Assembly (NCBI GenBank): GCA_963829545.1 | Contig: CAWHIX010000008.1 | Location: forward strand, 28,274-92,273 | Direction of reading: 5' to 3' | Source: an uncultured Actinomycetes bacterium | Lineage (GTDB): Bacteria; Actinomycetota; Thermoleophilia; RBG-16-64-13 | DNA length: 64,000 nucleotides | Shown: positions 1,628 to 10,202 of the stretch, one piece after another | Layout of the letters: every line of letters starts with the position of its first letter | Position numbering within the stretch: the first letter of the stretch is position 1 | Position numbers and translations under genes: made by a program | Notes under the pieces: generated by a model | What the model was told of the DNA's origin: nothing | Database searches by the model: none | The model's input: the letters and a program-made list of their open reading frames with translations, nothing else

Positions 1628-2587
1628 ATGGTCACCTACATAATCCGACGTCTCCTATGGGGCCTGGTGGTCCTCTTCATGGTCTCGCTGATTGTCTTCT
1701 TCTCCGTCCGTCTGCTGCCCGGGGACCCGGTGCTGATCTTCGCGGCGCAGATGCAGTCGGGGGGAATGATCACCGAGGAGGCGCTCGACAAGTTGAGGGA
1801 AGAATACGGGCTGGACAAGTCGGTTCCCGTCCAGTATCTCAACTGGGCGAAAGGGGTCCTCACCGGAGACCTGGGCAAGTCGATCATGTACCGGGAGGAT
1901 GTGGGCCAACTGTTATGGGATCGCTTCCCTGTGACCCTGTGGCTTGGTCTCATCTCCATCGTCATCAGCACGGTGTTCGGGATCTTCTTCGGGCTCATCG
2001 CCGCCGTACGACGAGGGAAGTGGATCGATTCAGTGGTGACATTCCTCTCGTATATCGGGTTGACCATCCCCGTGTTCCTGCTCGGACTCCTGCTGATCTA
2101 CTTCTTCGGGCTCAAGATGCGCTGGCTGCCTATCGCCGGCTATACCTCGCCGCTCGCCAACTTCCCGCTCAGCGTGCAGCAGAGCATCATGCCCGTCATC
2201 TGCCTGGCGGTAGTCCCTCTGGCCGTGACGGCCCGGCAGATGAGGTCGAGCGTGCTCGAGGTCAACAACATGGACTACGTGCGCACGGCGTGGTCCAAGG
2301 GCCTTAAAGAAAGGGTCGTCGTCACCCGGCACGTCCTCAAGAACAGCATGCTTCCCGTGGTCACGATGCTCGGCATCAGCATCGGCCTCGTCTTCGGCGG
2401 CTCGGTGATCATCGAGAACATGTTCGCCATCCCCGGGGTGGGTCGGCTCCTGGTCGGCGCCGTCTTCGGCCAAGACTACGTGGTCATCCAGGGCGGCACG
2501 CTCATGATCGCCCTCATCATCATCATCGTCAACCTGATCGTGGACATCTCCTACGGCTGGCTCGACCCAAGGATCCGCTATGAGTGA
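1628..2587 (+). CDS. Peptide/nickel ABC transporter permease (DppB/OppB-like)
   Basis: YIIRRLL, LPGDP, GLDK...QY, DYVRTAWSKGL, LDPRIRY motifs. Confidence 0.93.
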   Translation: MVTYIIRRLLWGLVVLFMVSLIVFFSVRLLPGDPVLIFAAQMQSGGMITEEALDKLREEYGLDKSVPVQYLNWAKGVLTGDLGKSIMYREDVGQLLWDRFPVTLWLGLISIVISTVFGIFFGLIAAVRRGKWIDSVVTFLSYIGLTIPVFLLGLLLIYFFGLKMRWLPIAGYTSPLANFPLSVQQSIMPVICLAVVPLAVTARQMRSSVLEVNNMDYVRTAWSKGLKERVVVTRHVLKNSMLPVVTMLGISIGLVFGGSVIIENMFAIPGVGRLLVGAVFGQDYVVIQGGTLMIALIIIIVNLIVDISYGWLDPRIRYE

Positions 2588-3513
2588 CACTCTTGACATG
2601 AACGCAGTGCCGTTAGCGAACGGGCCGATGCCCGGCCCGGAGCTGGACACGGTGACTGCCCCGCAGGTCAGTGAAGCGAAGCGCTTCTTCCGGATCATGT
2701 TCCAGCGCAAGCTGGTGATGTTCGGGGTGGGCGTCCTCGTGATCCTCGTGCTCGTGGGGATATTCGCTCCCCTTCTCGCTCCGTACAATCCCTATTTGAA
2801 CGACATGGCTCAATCCCTGCAGCCGCCAAGCTCGGAACACTGGCTGGGGACCGACAACCTGGGGCGCGACACCTTCAGTCGCCTCCTCTACGGCGCCAGA
2901 ACTGCCCTGATCGTAGGCTTCGGCACGGTGGCCGTCGCTTCTATCGCGGGGATGATCCTCGGGCTCATTGCCGGCTATCTCGGTGGGCTCCCCAACACGA
3001 TCATCATGCGCATCATGGACGCTCTGATGGGCTTTCCCATGCTCGTGCTGGCCCTGCTGCTGGCGGCGGTACTGGGCGGGGGCATCCAGAACGTCATCAT
3101 CGCCCTGGCCATCGCCACCCTGCCAGGCTATACGCGGCTGATGTGCGGCGAGACCCTGAGTGTGAAGGAGAACGAGTACATCACGGCGCAGCGGGCCATG
3201 GGTGCGAAGAACATGCGTACGATGGCCAGGCACATCCTGCCCAACGCCTTCCAACCGGTCCTGGTTCTCATCACGGCCATGCTCGGCAACGTGATCCTGG
3301 CCGAAGCCGGCCTCAGCTTCCTCGGTATCGGTATCAAGCCGCCCGGGGTCGCCTGGGGCAGCATGGCCGCCGACGGGTATCGCTACCTCGAGAGCCACCC
3401 CCAGCTCGCCTTCGCTCCCGCCGTCGCCATCATGGTGGTGGTGTTCGCCTTCAACATGGTGGGCGACGGTCTTCGCGATGCCCTCGATCCCGAAGTTGCG
3501 AGGTGTGCTGTGA
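2580..3513 (+). CDS. Peptide/nickel ABC transporter permease (DppC/OppC-like); apparent fusion to the ATPase comes from an indel
   Basis: HWLGTDNLGRD, EAGLSFLGIG and GDGLRDALDP motifs. Removing one base gives ...LDPKLRGVL*, with the TGA overlapping the next GTG. Confidence 0.88.
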
Positions 3514-4560
3514 GCACCCAGACATCGACGGCGAGCCGGCAGGAGCAGGCCTGCGACATCACACCGGCCGGTCGGCTGCTGGAGGTCAAGGACCTTCGGA
3601 CCGAGTTCAAGATCGAGACGGGCATCGTCCACGCCGTCAACGGGGTCTCCTACGTGGTCGACGAGCGGGAGATCGTGGGTGTGGTAGGAGAGAGCGGCTG
3701 CGGCAAGTCGGTCTCGCAGCTTTCCGTGATGCAACTCATCAGGAGCCCCGGCCGCATCGTCGGAGGGGAGGTGCGGTTCGAAGGCAGGAACCTTCTGGAC
3801 TACGCTCCCAACAGCTCGGAGATGCGCTCCATCCGCGGGGGCAAGATCAGCATGATCTTCCAGGAGCCCATGACCTCGCTCAACCCCACGTTGACTATCG
3901 GGCGGCAGCTGACCGAGTCGCTCGAGTTGCACCTGCTCATGGGCAAGAAGGAATCGCGCAAGCGCGCGGTGGAGTTGCTCGAGCAGGTGGGTATTCCCAG
4001 CGCGGCTGCCCGGGTGGACGACTATCCGCATCAGTTCAGCGGTGGGATGCGGCAGCGGGTCATGATCGCCATCGGCGTGGCCTGCCAGCCCAAGATGGTC
4101 ATAGCCGACGAGCCCACCACCGCGCTGGACTGCACCACCCAGGCCCAGTTGCTCGAGCTGATGCTGTCGAGCATCGACGGGTGTCGCGGCGCCCTGGTGC
4201 TGGTGACGCACAACCTGGGCGTGGTCGCGCGCTACGCGAAGCGCGTCTACATCATGTACGCGGGCAGGATCGTCGAGCAGGGCACCTGCCGCGACCTCTT
4301 CTACCGGCCCAGCCATCCCTACACGATCGGACTTCTCAACAGCGTCCCGCGCTTGGACGAGACAGCAGAGCCGCCGGCTGGTGCCTATCAGCGGGACCCC
4401 GCCCAACCTGCTCCAGCCTCCTACCCACTGCGCCTTCCTGCCGCGCTGCACCGAGCGAGGCGAACGCTGCTACACCGAGCCCTGGCCGGAGTTGGAGCCG
4501 GCGGACGGTGAGGGTCACATGGTGCGCTGCTACATGCGTGAAAAGGGAGCCGGAGCATGA
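3510..4560 (+). CDS. Peptide ABC transporter ATP-binding subunit (DppD/OppD-like), indel ~4372
   Basis: GESGCGKS, YPHQFSGGMRQR, IADEPTTALD, HPYT. The Cys-rich C-terminus (CAFLPRC...C...VRC) lies in a shifted frame. Confidence 0.9.
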
Positions 4561-4566
4561 CCGAGG

Positions 4567-5568
4567 GTGCCGAACAACGTGATCGTCGAGGTCGACTCCC
4601 TCAAGATGTACTTCCCCATCACCCGAGGACTGCTCAAGAAGAAGGTGGGCGAGATCAAGGCCGTCGACGGCGTCTCTTTCACCATCAAGCAGGGGGAGAC
4701 CCTTGGATTGGTGGGCGAGAGCGGCTGCGGCAAGACCACGGTCGGGCGTTGCCTGTGCCGGGTATACACGCCGACGCGCCGGCCGCATCTGGTTCAAGGG
4801 CCGGGAGATCTCCTCCATGCCCGAGAACGAGTTCCGGCCCCTTCGCCGCGAGATGGCCATCATCTTCCAGGACCCGTATTCGTCGCTCGATCCCCGGCAG
4901 ACAGCCGGTGGCATCGTGGGTGAGCCTCTCAAGATCCACAACATGGTGCAGAGCAAGGCGGAATACGACGAGAGGGTGGCTGCGCTGTTCGCCAAGGTCG
5001 GACTGGACCCCGACCTGCGGTCGCGCTATCCCCACGAGTTCAGCGGCGGCCAGCGACAGCGTATCGGCATCGCGCGCGCGCTGGCCGGCGAACCCAGCTT
5101 GATCATCTGCGACGAGCCGGTCTCGGCGCTGGATGTCTCCATCCAGGCTCAGATCATCAACCTGCTCATGGATCTCAGGGAGGGTTTGACCAGCTCACGT
5201 ACGTCTTCATCGCGCACGATCTCTCGGTGGTGAAGCACATCAGCGACCGCATCGCCGTGATGTACCTGGGCCATATCCTGGAGATCACGACCCCGACGGA
5301 GCTCTACGCCAATCCTATCCATCCCTACACGCGGGCCTTGCTGTCGGCGGTCTGCGTGCCCGACCCGGACATCGAGGCGACTCGGGAGCGGATCATCATG
5401 CAGGGCGAGGTGCCGAGCCCGGCCAATCCGCCCTCGGGCTGCGTGCTGCACAACCGGTGCCCTGATGTCAGACCGGAGTGCCGCACCACGATGCCGACTC
5501 TCACAGATGTGGGAGACGATCACCAGGTCGCCTGCCTCGCGGTGGGGTCCGAAGGCAAGCCGGCGTGA
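4567..5568 (+). CDS. Peptide ABC transporter ATP-binding subunit (DppF/OppF-like), two indels
   Basis: [40 protein letters not shown] and [10 protein letters not shown] spread over three frames. Confidence 0.9.
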
Positions 5569-6026
5569 GCGTGACTCGGGAGACGGAAGTGGCTGACTTG
5601 GGGACTCAGAGGGGCAACATCGTCACGACCTATCTGGCCGATACGAGCGTGTTCAAAGGCAGCGCCATCACGCCTCTGGCGTTCATCGACGGGACCTTCG
5701 TCCCGGGATCGTTCTATGCGGAGTGCGTCATGATCCACGAGCCCTCCAAGGGCTCGCCGCCCGAGCATAGTCACGATGATTTCGACGAGATCATCATGTT
5801 CTTCGGTACCGACCCGGAGCGGCCACACGACCTGTGCGGGGAGGTCGAATTGTGGATGGACGGAGAGAAGTACATGCTCACCGAGAGCTGCATGATCTTC
5901 GTCCCCAAGGGGATGAGGCACTGCCCCTTGTATGTCCGGAGGGTGGACAGGCCCATTCTCAACCTGTCCACGGGGCCTTCGGAGAGCTACAGCAGGGATG
6001 GCATCGAGCAGCAGCCCGCAGGCTGA
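5565..6026 (+). CDS. Cupin-like hypothetical protein (start uncertain)
   Basis: H.H..FDE..F.GTDP...L.GEVE...[10 protein letters not shown], a His/His/Glu/His cupin-like pattern. Confidence 0.65.
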
Positions 6027-6287
6027 ACAGGCGCAAGAGGAGAGTGGGCACGTGGCCATAGACTTCGTTTACCGGTGAGCTACATCCGAAAGCCGGCCAT
6101 ATGATGCGGGAGTGCGGCCGGGGTGGCGCTCTGATGTGAGAGTGCTCTATGCTCAGGGAAGCAGACGTCCAAAGGAGGTGCGTATCTCAGGTACTCGGGG
6201 GGTAGGGCAGGGTTCCGTTGTGTGCGTGACAATCGACGAGGCTTGTGTAGCTGAAGGCGACTGCTGTCCAGGACTGGGGGTAATGAA

Positions 6288-7941
6288 GTGAGAAGTAGGA
6301 CAAAGAAGAGGACCTTGTGGAGCATCGGAGTCCTTCTGTTGATCGGCCTCATGATGATGCTTATGGTGGGCTGCGGGGAGGACGAAGAGACCACCACGAC
6401 CGCGGCGGAGGGTGAGACCACCACCACCGCTCCCGCGGAGACCACGACGACGGCGCCGGCAGAGACTACGACAACGGTTGCGGCCGGGCCTGTCACCGGC
6501 GGCATCCTGAAGCTGATCCACAACGCCACGCCTCAGGACGTCGGCTACTGGCCCAAGATGGGCCCGGTCGACGAGGGCGGCATCTTCCCCGGCGTCGAGA
6601 GGATCATGCGGTTCACGCCCGAGCGCACGCTGGCACCCGATCTCGCAGTGAGCGTGGTCGAGGATCCCGATGCCCTCACCATCACGGTCCAGCTCCACGA
6701 GGGCGTCATGTTCCATGACGGCACGGAGCTGACCGCCGACGTGGCCAAGTGGAACTACGACATCGGCGCGGCCGGTGGCAAGCTCCAGTTTGCCGACGCG
6801 ATCAAGGAATTCGAGATCGTCGACAAGTACAACTACGTGCTGCACCTGAACTACTGGCACAACCAGCTGCTTCAGTCCCTCGGTTGGGTGCCCATGTTCT
6901 CCCAGGCCGCCTTCGAGGCGAACGGCGGAGAAGAGTGGGCCATGAACAACTTGGTGGGCACGGGTCCCTTCCTCCTCAAGGAGTTCAACCGCGACCAGTC
7001 CCTGGTCTGGGAGAAGAACCCCAACTACTGGCGCGAAGGGCAGCCGTACATGGACGGCATCGAGGTGACTATCATCCCCGACGCCACGACGGCTTCCGCG
7101 GTCATGCAGGCCGGGCAGGCTGACATCTGGCAGTCGGCCGACGCTCAGGGCCGGGCCGAGATGGTCGACAAGGGCTTCACGGTGCAGACCGGGTGGGCCG
7201 GGTTCCAGTACCACCTCATGCCCAACACCACCGACCCCGCCTCGCCGCTGGCCAAGCTGCAGGTACGCGAAGCGGTGGAATACGCTCTCGACAAGAAAGC
7301 CATCACCGACGCCATCGGCTTCGGGTTCTACTTCCCCATCCAGGTCGTTTCGCCTGAAGGCGAGTGGGGCTCCGACGCGGTCGTGGTAGACCGCCAGTAC
7401 GATCCCGAGAAGGCCAAGCAGCTGCTGGCCGAGGCCGGCTATGCCGACGGCTGTCCCATCGACCTGCTGGCTCTGGCCGAGGGTGGTGGCCGTAACACCG
7501 GCGCCGAGGCCGTTAAGGGCTATCTGGACGCTGCCGGGTTCGTCACCAACATCGATATCGCCGACCCCGGCCGCTTCTACGGCTCGGTCTTCGGCACGGG
7601 CTGGAAAGACCTGGCCTTCATGTTCAGCGGCAACGACTACAACTACCTCATGTCGTGCAACGCCTGGTGGGGCCCGACGCCCAAGACCAACCTGGCCAGC
7701 TTCACGCGGCCTGCCTGAGTTCGCGGCCCTCTTCGAGCCCGCCAACCAGGCCCGTGAGGCAGCGGCTCAGGAAGCCGAGACCGGCAAGATCGTGGGTATG
7801 ATGAACGAGCAGGCTCTGATGATCCCGGTCTTCCACTACCCGAACGGCATCGTCATCCAGAAGTACGTCCACACGGAGTACCCGATGGAAGGCGGCTTCG
7901 TGCACTGGTCCTGGAACACCACCTGGATGGACGCGCACTAG
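6288..7941 (+). CDS. ABC transporter substrate-binding lipoprotein, family 5 (indel ~7712)
   Basis: Lipobox LMVGC, ETTTTAPA x3 linker, FHDGTELTAD, GTGPF, NPNYW, YDPEKAKQLLAEAGY. The C-terminus continues in the 7441..7941 frame. Confidence 0.92.
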
Positions 7942-7985
7942 TCAGCGAAACCAGATGAGGTGCGGCCCGCACGGCGGGCCGCGAC

Positions 7986-8028
7986 GGCGCGAGCCCCCCA
8001 GACTTCGGTCTGGGGGGCTCGCGCCTTT
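7986..8028 (+). terminator. Rho-independent terminator between convergent genes
   Basis: Perfect 18-bp stem (7986-8003/8008-8025), cUUCGg tetraloop, followed by TTT. Confidence 0.85.
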
Positions 8029-8054
8029 GTCCTTCCTGGGCCGTCTCTGCGGAC

Positions 8055-8853
8055 TTACCCCTTGCGCGCTTCCAGGCCCCACTTCCTGAAGTACTCCTCG
8101 TAGAAGGGGGGCTGCTGGAAGTCGGGCTGGAGCGAGAGGTTGAAGCGCCGGAATCCCCTGCCCGACTCCTCGAAGTGGTAGATCCCGTCCATCAGCTCCT
8201 TGAGTCTGTGTCGTCGGCACCGTCAGGACCATCTCGTCTTCCTGGGCGCCGGCCCGCTCGAAATCACCGGGATCGGGCACGGTGACCTGGCATTCCCCGT
8301 TCAACAACGAAGGGACGACGGAGTGCACGCAGGAACCGATGGGGTCGAGGGTCGAGGTGACCTGCGTCCCGTGCAGATAACGCAAGGCAAGGAGCAGATG
8401 CCGCAGTTGCGCCGAGTTGCAGTAGATCATCACGAGGTCGGGCTCGAAGTTGGCCGACTTGAGGGGCCCCATCACCATTCCGGGGTACTGCCCCACAGGC
8501 AGGCGCGTCATCTGGCGGGAATGCTCCTCAGCCGCCTGCTTGTCGGCGATGAAGAAGGAGCTCGTGGAACCCTCCAGGTAGTCCTGAGGCGTCTCGACCA
8601 GCCCATAGGAGATTATCGGTTCGAAGCACCAGTGGTCCTCCAAGAACATGGCGATGGTCATGCCCTGGCGGCGCGCAAGCGCAAAGGCCTGGCATACGGC
8701 GTAGTGCTCGTCCCTGTCCTTCTTGGGCCGGACGGCTCCCTCCGGGACCTCGGATTCGCTCTCCAGCATCTTGATGGCGATGGGATACGTCCTCAAGCAG
8801 AGAAACTGCTCGAGGTCCGCGCCGTACGTGTTGAACTCACTGTGCGTAGTCAT
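8055..8853 (-). CDS. DUF169 family protein (indel ~8210)
   Basis: LRTYPIAIK, CQAFALARRQG, HWC, GSC, PDPGD motifs. The C-terminus ...YFRKWGLEARKG* is in a shifted frame. Confidence 0.8.
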
Positions 8854-8994: not shown

Positions 8995-10140
8995 CTACTC
9001 GGTCACGACCCGGTTCCCCCTTACGAACTTGCCCATGACCATCGCGTACACGATGGCCCCCAAGAACACGCTGACGTAGTTGAGTACGGCTATGGCTGTG
9101 TACTGAAAGAAGAACGCATATACGTACACTCCCAGGACCTGGGAGCCGACGAACACTCAGACAAACCCCCACTGCGCCGGGGCGAAGGGGCTCTTTGCGA
9201 AGTGGCTCCTGAAGTAATCCCTGATGAGATAGATAGCGCCAAGAGCCCATACAACCGCAACGCCGTACGAGGCAGTGATCAGCAGTGACTCCCATCCGTG
9301 CAGTCCAGAGGCGAGGTGAGGCTGCATGTACTCTGCTATTCGGTACGCACTCAGACCGTAGAGGCAGGCAATAGGGACGATTAAGAAGAACGCCGGCAGT
9401 ATCGCGGTGGCGGGCAGCTTGGCGGCTCGCACGTGTGCGTAGACCAGATACGCCACCTTATACACCAGCAGCACCGAACCAACGACCAGTGTGAACAGGG
9501 TAGCGACGGCAGCTGTGGTACGGATCACGTCGTCGCTGGCCATCGAGACGATGCCGGAGCCCGTCAAGCTGACCAGACCAAAGGCGAAGGCGTCGAGAAG
9601 CCAGACGAAGTTGAACTCCCTTCTCTGCACGCCTCTGGAGAACCAGGTCCTACCAAACGTCACTTGGAAGAAGAGCAGCGCTGACAAGAGGATGCCGAAG
9701 ACTATCAATGACGGCACCATCAACGCCTGCATGTTCGAGGACACCTGCGGGACGAAGAAGCCGAAAGGGGCCCAGAAGACGTTGACCGTCATCGATAGAG
9801 AGGCGACGATGGCGAATATGCCCGTGTTCTGATTCTGATGCGGGTTGTTCTTGAAGCCGCCGTAGGCTCCCGGCTCCCCAAGCCACGTGGCCAGACGATA
9901 GAGGAAGTATCCTGTGAGCACAAAGTTGAGGACGGTGAACGCCAACATCACGGCGACCAGGGGCGCGTAGAGGGCAATCTGCCCCCCTGTCAACGTCCCC
10001 CACGAAATATCAGACGACGTGATCAACCCCTCACCATGGGGGATAGCGAATTGGAGGTAGTTGAACGCCATCAGGGCAACGCCGCCTGCTGCCAACGACG
10101 ACTGGAACAACAGCGGGTGGAACTTGATACTGAGCTTCAC
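8995..10140 (-). CDS. 10-TM membrane selenoprotein (TsoY-like), 381 aa with Sec at codon 328
   Basis: GTG start with GGGAG RBS. In-frame TGA at 9159-9157 in ...PAQWGFV-U-VFVGSQVLG, followed by 53 more codons that complete two hydrophobic helices up to TAG at 8997-8995. SECIS-like hairpin 11 nt after the UGA. Family name is from recollection, not a search. Confidence 0.82.
9129..9145 (-). promoter_or_regulatory. Bacterial SECIS-like hairpin of the membrane selenoprotein
   Basis: CUCCCA-GGUCC-UGGGAG starting 11 nt after the UGA. The apical CAGGUC resembles the E. coli fdhF SECIS loop. Confidence 0.75.
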
Positions 10141-10157
10141 GGCTGCTCCCCGTACAC

Positions 10158-10202
10158 ATTGCAATATGGCCAGATTGCGATATTATAGCGCACGATAGCG
10201 CA
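10158..10202. promoter_or_regulatory. Divergent promoter region with repeated operator-like boxes
   Basis: TTGCAA-16nt-TATTAT on + (10159-10186); ATTGC(A/G)ATAT at 10158 and 10174; ATAGCGCA at 10185 and 10195. Confidence 0.55.

Follow-up and report, generated by a model that had tools for sequence, protein, structure and literature searches.

TehA and SLAC1 are anion channels of the TDT/SLAC1 family in which a central phenylalanine plugs the pore. Members of this family are homotrimers, with each subunit enclosing a pore of its own. A second system of relevance here is YedE/YedF, a candidate pair for selenium transport and redox functions, to which the YeeE/YeeD thiosulfate uptake system is related. 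For TehA, the accessible text of one study names Phe262 on transmembrane helix 9 as the gating residue and describes the odd-numbered helices as lining the pore (PMC11050165), and a second source, likewise available in part, equates F262 of TehA with F450 of AtSLAC1 (PMC10645844). The available part of the work on YedE lists a carrier partner, a selenocysteine (Sec, U) lyase, SelD and LysR_Se among its gene neighbors and assigns a DsrE-like CGXC domain to YedF (Lin et al. 2015; PMC5322559). The selenoprotein TsoY appears as NF047643, with the motif UxxV, in the accessible portion of a 2026 review, which attributes it to Haft and Tolstoy (2025, mSystems; PMC13188914). Here, a TsoY gene is described from an uncultured Actinomycetes bacterium (GTDB lineage Bacteria; Actinomycetota; Thermoleophilia; RBG-16-64-13; assembly GCA_963829545.1), within a 64,000-nucleotide stretch of contig CAWHIX010000008.1 (positions 28,274 to 92,273, forward strand) that is referred to below as the window. 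The Sec residue of this protein likely occupies the position equivalent to the gate phenylalanine (F262/F450), as judged from alignment to TehA. The best overall explanation, favored with modest confidence, is that TsoY forms a pore that passes or relays sulfur or selenium species via a reactive chalcogen at its constriction.

The TsoY gene lies at 8995-10140 on the reverse strand. Under translation table 11, the open reading frame (ORF) at 9157-10164 of this strand terminates at a TGA codon (9157-9159), and readthrough of this codon yields one 389-residue frame (8995-10164, reverse strand) that ends at a TAG (8995-8997) and holds a single non-standard codon, that of U336. Residues are numbered here on this longer frame, which opens at an in-frame TTG (10162-10164). 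The probable start of the gene is the GTG at 10138-10140, which is favored because a predicted ribosome-binding site, GGGGAG (10146-10151, reverse strand, recognized from its letters), lies 5 nt upstream of it and because the homologues and the NCBIfam model begin there. Counted from the GTG, the protein has 381 residues and the Sec is residue 328; the 381-residue protein with Sec at position 328 of an earlier note on this DNA is thus the same protein.

The TGA at 9157-9159 is not a chance occurrence or a sequencing slip. Among 47 loci from species genomes, the codon at the Sec column is TGA in 39 and TGT or TGC in three, with the other five partial or frame-broken and unresolved. Public short-read runs agree with the assembly at this point, as one contig (X2) spans 9148-9377 with 0 differences and a second (X3) spans 9136-9296 with no listed difference at the TGA codon; these runs contain at most 0.23 of the sampled words, none of their contigs spans the region, and no inference on habitat or expression is drawn from them. 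Beginning 11 nt after the TGA is a hairpin resembling a selenocysteine insertion sequence (SECIS), the core of which (9128-9146, reverse strand) has 8 base pairs and a GUC loop, within an extended stem at 9118-9156. The 71-nt stretch that contains it has a minimum free energy (MFE) of -22.1 kcal/mol (z -2.6), which was equaled by 5 of 200 shuffles. Of 40 TGA-bearing genes, 39 have this hairpin in their MFE structure, and the remaining one (L064) has an identical stem sequence nonetheless; none of the three Cys-codon genes has the hairpin. This region encodes an identical G-S-Q-V-L-G peptide in both kinds of gene, and the hairpin is lost from the Cys-codon genes because synonymous codons disrupt the stem. 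A scan of the window with Rfam yielded no family at its gathering score and hence no match to a curated SECIS model, and ARAGORN found no tRNA in the window.

The machinery required for Sec insertion is present elsewhere in the genome (3.05 Mb, 92.5% complete), where SelB (317.1 bits), SelD (394.5 bits), SelA (510.5 bits) and two tRNA-Sec matches (80.4 and 77.6 bits) all score above their cut-offs, and where the SelD gene itself carries a TGA. The two tRNA-Sec matches are situated on separate contigs (C6:2748-2840 and C12:3522-3614), both close to SelB-like matches by the contig starts, and may reflect a genuine duplication or the double assembly of a single region.

Were the TGA instead to end translation, only a truncated protein of eight helices would be made, and the 53-codon frame downstream would be untranslated or form a separate small gene. 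Gene callers do treat it in this manner: of the best 120 database homologues, 100 terminate just before the TGA column, 17 read through with C and three are fragments, although the database writes U as C, such that some of these 17 may be Sec forms. Frame breaks of 1 nt in neighboring genes of the same assembly would also be in keeping with a stop. Despite this, termination at the TGA is extremely improbable, as the 53 further codons continue in an unshifted frame and supply the final two helices needed for a complete fold of ten, the Cys-codon homologues read through, the hairpin is kept in the TGA forms only, the Sec machinery of the genome is complete, and an NCBIfam equivalog model spans the codon. 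A real stop or a pseudogene was rejected on these grounds, and the decoding as Sec put forward in the earlier note is upheld by the frame, the downstream hairpin, the Cys homologues, and SelA, SelB, SelD and tRNA-Sec.

The assignment to TsoY is virtually certain. The NCBIfam model NF047643 ("selenoprotein TsoY") matches the protein at 507.5 bits against a cut-off of 250, with residues 14-380 aligned to model positions 1-366 of 366 across the TGA, and the broader NF047644 ("TsoY family (seleno)protein") does so at 313.9 bits against a cut-off of 150. The latter model is also matched by 55 of 55 divergent family members at E<=1e-5. Additionally, the Sec of the window protein stands at the Sec position of the family, where it reads U-V-F-V, in keeping with the motif UxxV of the review table (PMC13188914). 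The family is therefore one already catalogued, and the window gene is not a new selenoprotein; both the curated family and the family-wide invariance of Cys or Sec at this position, which is not peculiar to the window gene, had escaped the earlier note. The closest relatives among genomes are Actinomycetota/Gaiellales metagenome-assembled genomes (MAGs) with an identical divergent DsrE-ArsR-NifS arrangement. Unlike the three-selenoprotein operon behind the name of TsoY, the gene in the window stands without its namesake partners: TsoA was not found in the genome and the matches to TsoB and TsoC fell below their cut-offs, which places this TsoY outside such an operon.

TsoY is an inner-membrane protein with the fold of TehA and SLAC1. 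An AlphaFold2 model built from 18 full-length homologues (predicted local distance difference test 83.6, predicted template-modeling score 0.86) contains ten long helices, at residues 17-40, 60-95, 110-137, 146-177, 186-208, 212-247, 253-283, 289-313, 329-351 and 356-388 according to DSSP, the same number as the hydrophobic segments that the earlier note had counted. The ninth of these (9112-9180, reverse strand) is equivalent to the helix that bears the gate residue in TehA and SLAC1, and U336 is its eighth residue. When the model was compared with the PDB by Foldseek, ranks 1-24 were all SLAC1, SLAH1/3 or TehA, at a probability of 1.00 and target-normalized template-modeling scores of 0.54-0.79. 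By VIA-align, all 22 SLAC1/SLAH/TehA rows gave Z values of 26.6-32.2, their alignments covering 295-321 residues from end to end, among them SLAH1 (9m7u_A; Z 32.2, 320 residues, 3.1 Å), SLAC1 (7en0_A; Z 31.5, 307 residues, 2.9 Å) and Haemophilus influenzae TehA (3m71; Z 29.5, 301 residues, 3.1 Å, residues 12-388 of the model on 6-310 of the chain); the best unrelated chain was a designed helical protein at Z 19.3. Because the matched ranges extend over the full length, a superposition that is rotated by a helical hairpin is excluded. The fold assignment of the earlier note thus stood up to the modeling and structural search that it had proposed.

Sequence features are in accord with this distant relationship. 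The Pfam SLAC1 model is matched at E<=0.01 by 23 of the 55 divergent TsoY-family members, with a best E of 1.3e-15. Of the motifs that had been picked out by eye, FHP..F is found as F-H-P-L-L-F before helix 1 and the helix 9 motif as P-F-A-P-A-Q-W-G-F-V-U at the start of that helix, while the motif written as LP....P.FF..P does lead into helix 7, as L-P-A-T-A-I-L-P-A-F-F-L-I-V-P, but with its dots one residue short. The breaks in the helices are also similar, as the available text on SLAC1 lists mid-helix breakers at G198, P270, G337, P397 and P451 (PMC10645844), to which Gly27-Gly28 in helix 1 of TsoY, Pro264 in helix 7 and a Pro that follows the Cys in one subfamily (discussed below) correspond. 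TsoY is some 70 residues longer than TehA and SLAC1, however, and the longest gap in the profile alignment falls in the loop between helices 1 and 2.

The placement of the Sec relies on a profile-profile comparison. Alignment of E. coli TehA to the PDB sequences shows that the E. coli and H. influenzae proteins both read W-x-F-S-F-G, in which the last Phe is residue 262; the H. influenzae protein reads L-W-A-F-S-F(262)-G, and the deposited chain 3m74 has L at 262. In a diverse TDT alignment composed of 21 loci from other genomes and E. coli TehA, the gate column is Phe in 22 of 22 rows and is followed by Pro in 19. The alignment of the 55-member TsoY family to these 22 rows by hhalign has a probability of 93.7% (E = 1.9e-7) and places residues 9-348 on 3-274. 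Within it, residues 329-348 fall on 255-274 of E. coli TehA, and Q-W-G-F-V-C (331-336) lies on F-W-S-F-S-F (257-262) with a posterior of 9 of 9. The register drawn by eye in the earlier note, with the Sec of PHENYLALANINE on the gate, is the one recovered, since U336 is set on F262 and W332 on W258. This pairing of 336 with 262 was unchanged across four settings, including the narrower alignment A1 and mact values of 0.01 and 0.5, and a repeat-shifted alternative had a probability of 0.72%. TsoY thus retains the Trp with which the helix 9 motif of TehA and SLAC1 begins, but it lacks the complete TDT motif W-x-[FYLM]-x-F because Sec stands in the place of the Phe, and in the family at large the gating Phe of the TDT proteins is replaced by Cys or Sec. 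Judging by the charges of the loops, both termini and the loops that lead from even- to odd-numbered helices face the cytoplasm, so that helix 9 runs from inside to outside, with U336 roughly two turns from its cytoplasmic end. The gate-position reading of TsoY may be new: neither the residue-level equivalence with the gate Phe nor the invariance of this position, the clade-specific Cys or a quantified neighborhood was found in the searchable literature, a search whose scope excluded the founding TsoY paper and all supplements.

A search of 1.84 billion representatives returned 179 relatives of TsoY. Among the 72 sequences of at least 340 residues, the gate column is C in 67, W in one and a gap in four, these last being proteins that end at the TGA. 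In the 55 divergent members, which reach down to 15% identity, the invariant columns are Met125, Pro264 and Cys336 and no others; they lie on helices 3, 7 and 9, respectively, all of them odd-numbered. Two subtypes can be distinguished. In TsoY proper, the post-gate Pro is absent and a second Cys, Cys267 (codon 9364-9366, reverse strand), follows three residues past the invariant Pro of helix 7 in 42 of 42 resolved genome loci; by alignment this Cys is restricted to the TsoY-proper clade, and it is also invariant in the narrower alignment A1. Sec is confined to this clade. The C-P subtype, which has the motif L-I-C-P-G-V-A, keeps a Pro after the gate position as in SLAC1, carries Thr267 (39 of 72 sequences), and uses TGT or TGC at the gate codon in 80 of 80 metagenome loci and TGA in none. 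This subfamily (L095-L174) is large, AT-rich and Cys-only, with the motif in 70 of its 80 loci and a sparse conserved context. One of its neighbors, a secreted-looking protein of about 153 residues in 10 of 80 loci, was initially suspected to be DsrE-like and was dropped, having no Pfam match.

The presence of a second Cys on an adjacent pore helix raises the prospect of a redox-gated anion channel, in which a selenenylsulfide between U336 and Cys267 would open or close an otherwise ordinary TDT pore and selenium would be a switch rather than a substrate site. The gate-equivalent position of the Sec suits such a role, as does the distribution of residue 267 (Cys in all 42 TsoY-proper loci, Thr in the C-P subfamily), and an Arg at 275 of pore helix 7 in 67 of the 72 sequences is as expected of an anion pore. 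Yet Cys336 is invariant even though 39 sequences combine Thr267, Cys336 and Pro337, and since Cys336 is kept without Cys267, the U336-Cys267 pair is excluded as the ancestral mechanism. Nor would a simple regulated anion channel be expected to be linked as tightly as TsoY is to genes for DsrE-like, NifS-like and SelD proteins, described next, and the redox gate is regarded as improbable.

The neighborhood of TsoY was surveyed across the 47 genome loci by clustering their ORFs, assigning them by BLAST to nine representatives and checking these against Pfam and NCBIfam. A DsrE-family gene is found near TsoY in 31 of the 47 loci, and within 1 kb in 26. One DsrE subtype, with an invariant C-G-T-C and a third Cys, is often encoded 4 nt upstream of TsoY or overlapping it on the same strand. 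Other recurrent neighbors are ArsR regulators (27 loci), NifS-like proteins (15), a CGGC domain (8) and class-I methyltransferases (4). SelD lies beside TsoY in 12 loci (TIGR00476, 325 bits), and LysR regulators do so in 11; among the NCBIfam models, these best match that of the LysR of selenium metabolism, where at 199.7 bits they stay under the cut-off of 250. The named hosts include selenate or selenite respirers, namely Mesobacillus selenatarsenatis SF-1 (with two copies), Anaerobacillus arseniciselenatis and Selenihalanaerobacter shriftii, and other hosts are Desulfitobacterium, Thermincola, Geobacter and Desulfurivibrio. SelD is above its cut-off in two of the three Cys-form genomes. A complex prediction for the Cys-form TsoY of one locus (L084) with its adjoining DsrE-like protein gave 0.00 in both runs, which constitutes no verdict and is not used here.

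Whereas TehA is paired with the methyltransferase TehB, the neighbors of TsoY are sulfur- and selenium-relay proteins, save at four of the 47 loci. In three of these, from Neobacillus/Mesobacillus (L063, L071 and L073), the order is TsoY, DsrE-like protein, class-I methyltransferase and NifS-like protein, with SelD and a divergent LysR gene upstream; in the fourth, a Geobacter MAG (L090), the methyltransferase is the only such neighbor and is on the opposite strand. The methyltransferase of L071 matches the Pfam TehB model at 39.4 bits and has its best match in Methyltransf_11 (108.2 bits). The pairing of the TDT-fold TsoY with a methyltransferase at these loci echoes that of TehA and TehB.

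A further alternative is a transporter of, or resistance protein to, soft metal(loid)s such as arsenite, tellurite, mercury or copper(I), in which Met125 and Cys or Sec336 would coordinate the ion within the pore. A thioether and a thiol or selenol are indeed the only invariant side chains of the family besides Pro, ArsR/SmtB regulators stand beside 27 of the 47 loci, the related TehA is annotated as a tellurite-resistance protein, and four loci have a nearby class-I methyltransferase that Pfam matches to TehB. No arsenic, mercury or copper resistance genes occur among the conserved neighbor clusters, however, and the SelD, NifS-like and DsrE-like neighbors indicate chalcogen trafficking. The ArsR family, moreover, includes sensors of sulfur species, and the second-best NCBIfam match of one ArsR neighbor is the sulfite-sensing BigR model (54.7 bits, below cut-off). 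A role in metal(loid) transport is accordingly considered unlikely.

The set of genes around TsoY instead mirrors that described for YedE in the accessible text of Lin et al. (2015; PMC5322559). DUF169, which appears in the STRING list given there for YedE, also adjoins TsoY in the window. Like TsoY, YedE has ten membrane helices and an invariant functional Cys, and selenoprotein forms of it exist according to the review table (PMC13188914). One of the DsrE-like proteins that adjoin TsoY weakly resembles the YedF model at its DsrE-like end (19.5 bits, against a cut-off of 110). The fold recovered for TsoY is nevertheless that of TehA/SLAC1, and no family of the YedE type was found in Pfam and NCBIfam scans of TsoY. 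The likeness would accordingly be one of context and proposed logic only, with TsoY an analogue of YedE/YedF rather than a relative.

These comparisons suggest how a sulfur or selenium pore might operate. The central constriction would be formed by a reactive thiol or selenol in place of a hydrophobic plug, and in the TsoY-proper clade U336 would sit together with Cys267 of the neighboring helix 7 and Met125, the invariant residue of helix 3. Sulfur or selenium in an anionic or exchangeable form (selenite, selenide, perselenide or a thiosulfate-like compound) would pass by binding or exchange at U336, and would be transferred in the cytoplasm to small carriers of the DsrE-like kind, which bear Cys or Sec, and from these on to NifS-like enzymes and SelD. 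As a pore for selenium (or sulfur) traffic, TsoY would in this manner serve either assimilation or detoxification. Within the TDT family, Ssu1 is a sulfite efflux protein and TehA carries the annotation for tellurite resistance, and with these chalcogen-oxyanion members selenite-like anions become plausible substrates. The DsrE/NifS/SelD neighborhood favors covalent binding of a substrate over a redox gate. That TsoY transports sulfur or selenium species and that its Sec has a chemical role in this is given about an even chance. A more specific version, in which TsoY and its DsrE-like partner constitute a dedicated selenium-relay pore, is offered tentatively; here, a selenium species arriving from outside would form a Se-Se or S-Se adduct with the Sec or Cys at the gate and pass via Cys267 as a perselenide to the cytoplasmic carrier, and then to SelD or to detoxification in selenium-respiring bacteria.

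A number of observations weigh against the placement of U336 and the trafficking role proposed from it. With regard to homology, the window protein scores 22.4 bits with the Pfam SLAC1 model (PF03595; E = 7.6e-5, residues 14-378 on model positions 1-328 of 331), below the gathering score of 27.9, and given this score together with the shared fold TsoY is filed as a distant homologue of TDT/SLAC1 and not as a Pfam member. No PDB chain was matched at E<=10 by the TsoY profiles A1 and A2, for which reason the link to TehA rests on the fold search and the profile-profile alignment, and no member of the 55-sequence TsoY set was matched in an hmmsearch with a small hidden Markov model of the 22 TDT rows. 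With the narrower alignment A1 alone, hhalign returned a probability of 41.8% and a posterior of 5 at the gate column. Against near-identical enterobacterial TehA sequences it gave no usable global alignment and, locally, a repeat-shifted one of 50 columns at 0.2%; as this low-diversity alignment failed, it was replaced by the diverse 22-row TDT alignment. The Sec was modeled as Cys in the AlphaFold2 model, it is by homology that U336 is expected to face the pore, and the proximity of residues 336 and 267 in TsoY is likewise presumed, a point that counts equally against the redox gate.

With regard to context, the 47 loci are mutually related and are not independent samples, and nine of them have none of the associated genes, four of these having less than 700 nt of upstream flank. 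At the window locus, DsrE-like and NifS-like genes lie close to TsoY, but SelD is located some 400 kb from it, on the same contig, and both of the flanking partner genes (DsrE-like and DUF169) look frameshifted. The 80 loci of the C-P subfamily showed no conserved selenium-related neighbors, and because this subfamily is also Cys-only, the ancestral substrate need not be selenium. Among 201 sampled genomes of the phylum, moreover, the TsoY family (TsoY_fam) occurs in three, all from the window's own family, as against 144 with SelD. TsoY therefore cannot be a general route of selenium supply, and these same numbers render the phylum-wide co-occurrence of TsoY and SelD uninformative.

TsoY nonetheless represents a side branch of the TehA/SLAC1 fold in which the plug Phe is replaced by an invariant Cys, with Sec in 39 of the 47 genome loci. 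To the catalogued family, the present analysis adds a residue-level homology with the gate Phe, the family-wide invariance of Cys/Sec there, a second and clade-specific Cys, and a quantified neighborhood. Should U336 face the pore, this would be an uncommon instance of a reactive chalcogen at the narrowest point of a channel, and transport would involve chemistry, in the form of exchange, redox switching or a covalent relay, instead of simple diffusion. If the relay reading is true, a channel fold has been turned into a covalent group-transfer transporter. The neighbors of TsoY (DsrE-like, NifS-like, SelD and a selenium-type LysR), together with its selenium-respiring hosts, make it a testable candidate for membrane selenium trafficking. 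According to the accessible portion of the 2026 review, a specific prokaryotic selenium uptake system had not been identified (PMC13188914), and under the relay reading TsoY would be a candidate for this missing component.

In the window itself, the gene divergent from TsoY (10228-10582, forward strand) encodes a DsrE-family protein (Pfam PF02635, 46.9 bits) with an in-frame TGA of its own at 10460-10462, and is a selenoprotein candidate with the motif V-A-L-U-G-T-C-M-D-A-R-G around this codon. Its frame is broken by an extra G near 10322-10323; the corresponding gene of a relative (L049) is intact and encodes 117 residues including U, and one metagenome contig of about 91% likeness has one base fewer at 10323. 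An RNA-library contig over 10363-10584 is not evidence of transcription. Following on the forward strand are an ArsR/SmtB-family regulator (10607-10951; Pfam HTH_5, 56.1 bits) and a NifS/IscS-like cysteine desulfurase, possibly a selenocysteine lyase (10965-12119); its top NCBIfam hit, TIGR03402 (440.2 bits), falls short of the equivalog cut-off of 530.75.

On the other side, 76 nt downstream of TsoY and on the same strand, lies a DUF169 gene (7942-8853, reverse strand; Pfam PF02596, 144.7 bits over residues 14-217). Its frame shifts near 8213, such that the true C-terminus runs on in the frame of the ORF at 8055-8192, and one contig of run X3, again of about 91% likeness, has one base fewer at 8213. 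In a single contig of run X1, 8966 and 10156 are linked through 26 other letters (36 letters on the shorter side, 88% likeness), which weakly suggests a related organism with the DUF169 and DsrE-like genes and no TsoY between them. Genes of a peptide/nickel-type ATP-binding cassette (ABC) transporter at 2580-7941 (forward strand) also appear to be interrupted by changes of frame, in the permease, the ATPases and the substrate-binding protein, the last of which (6288-7718) runs on in 7441-7941. The assembly may contain many single-base insertions or deletions, or the region many pseudogenes. Beyond the NifS-like gene are a DUF305 gene (12895-13518, forward strand) and a major facilitator superfamily transporter gene (13865-15367, reverse strand).

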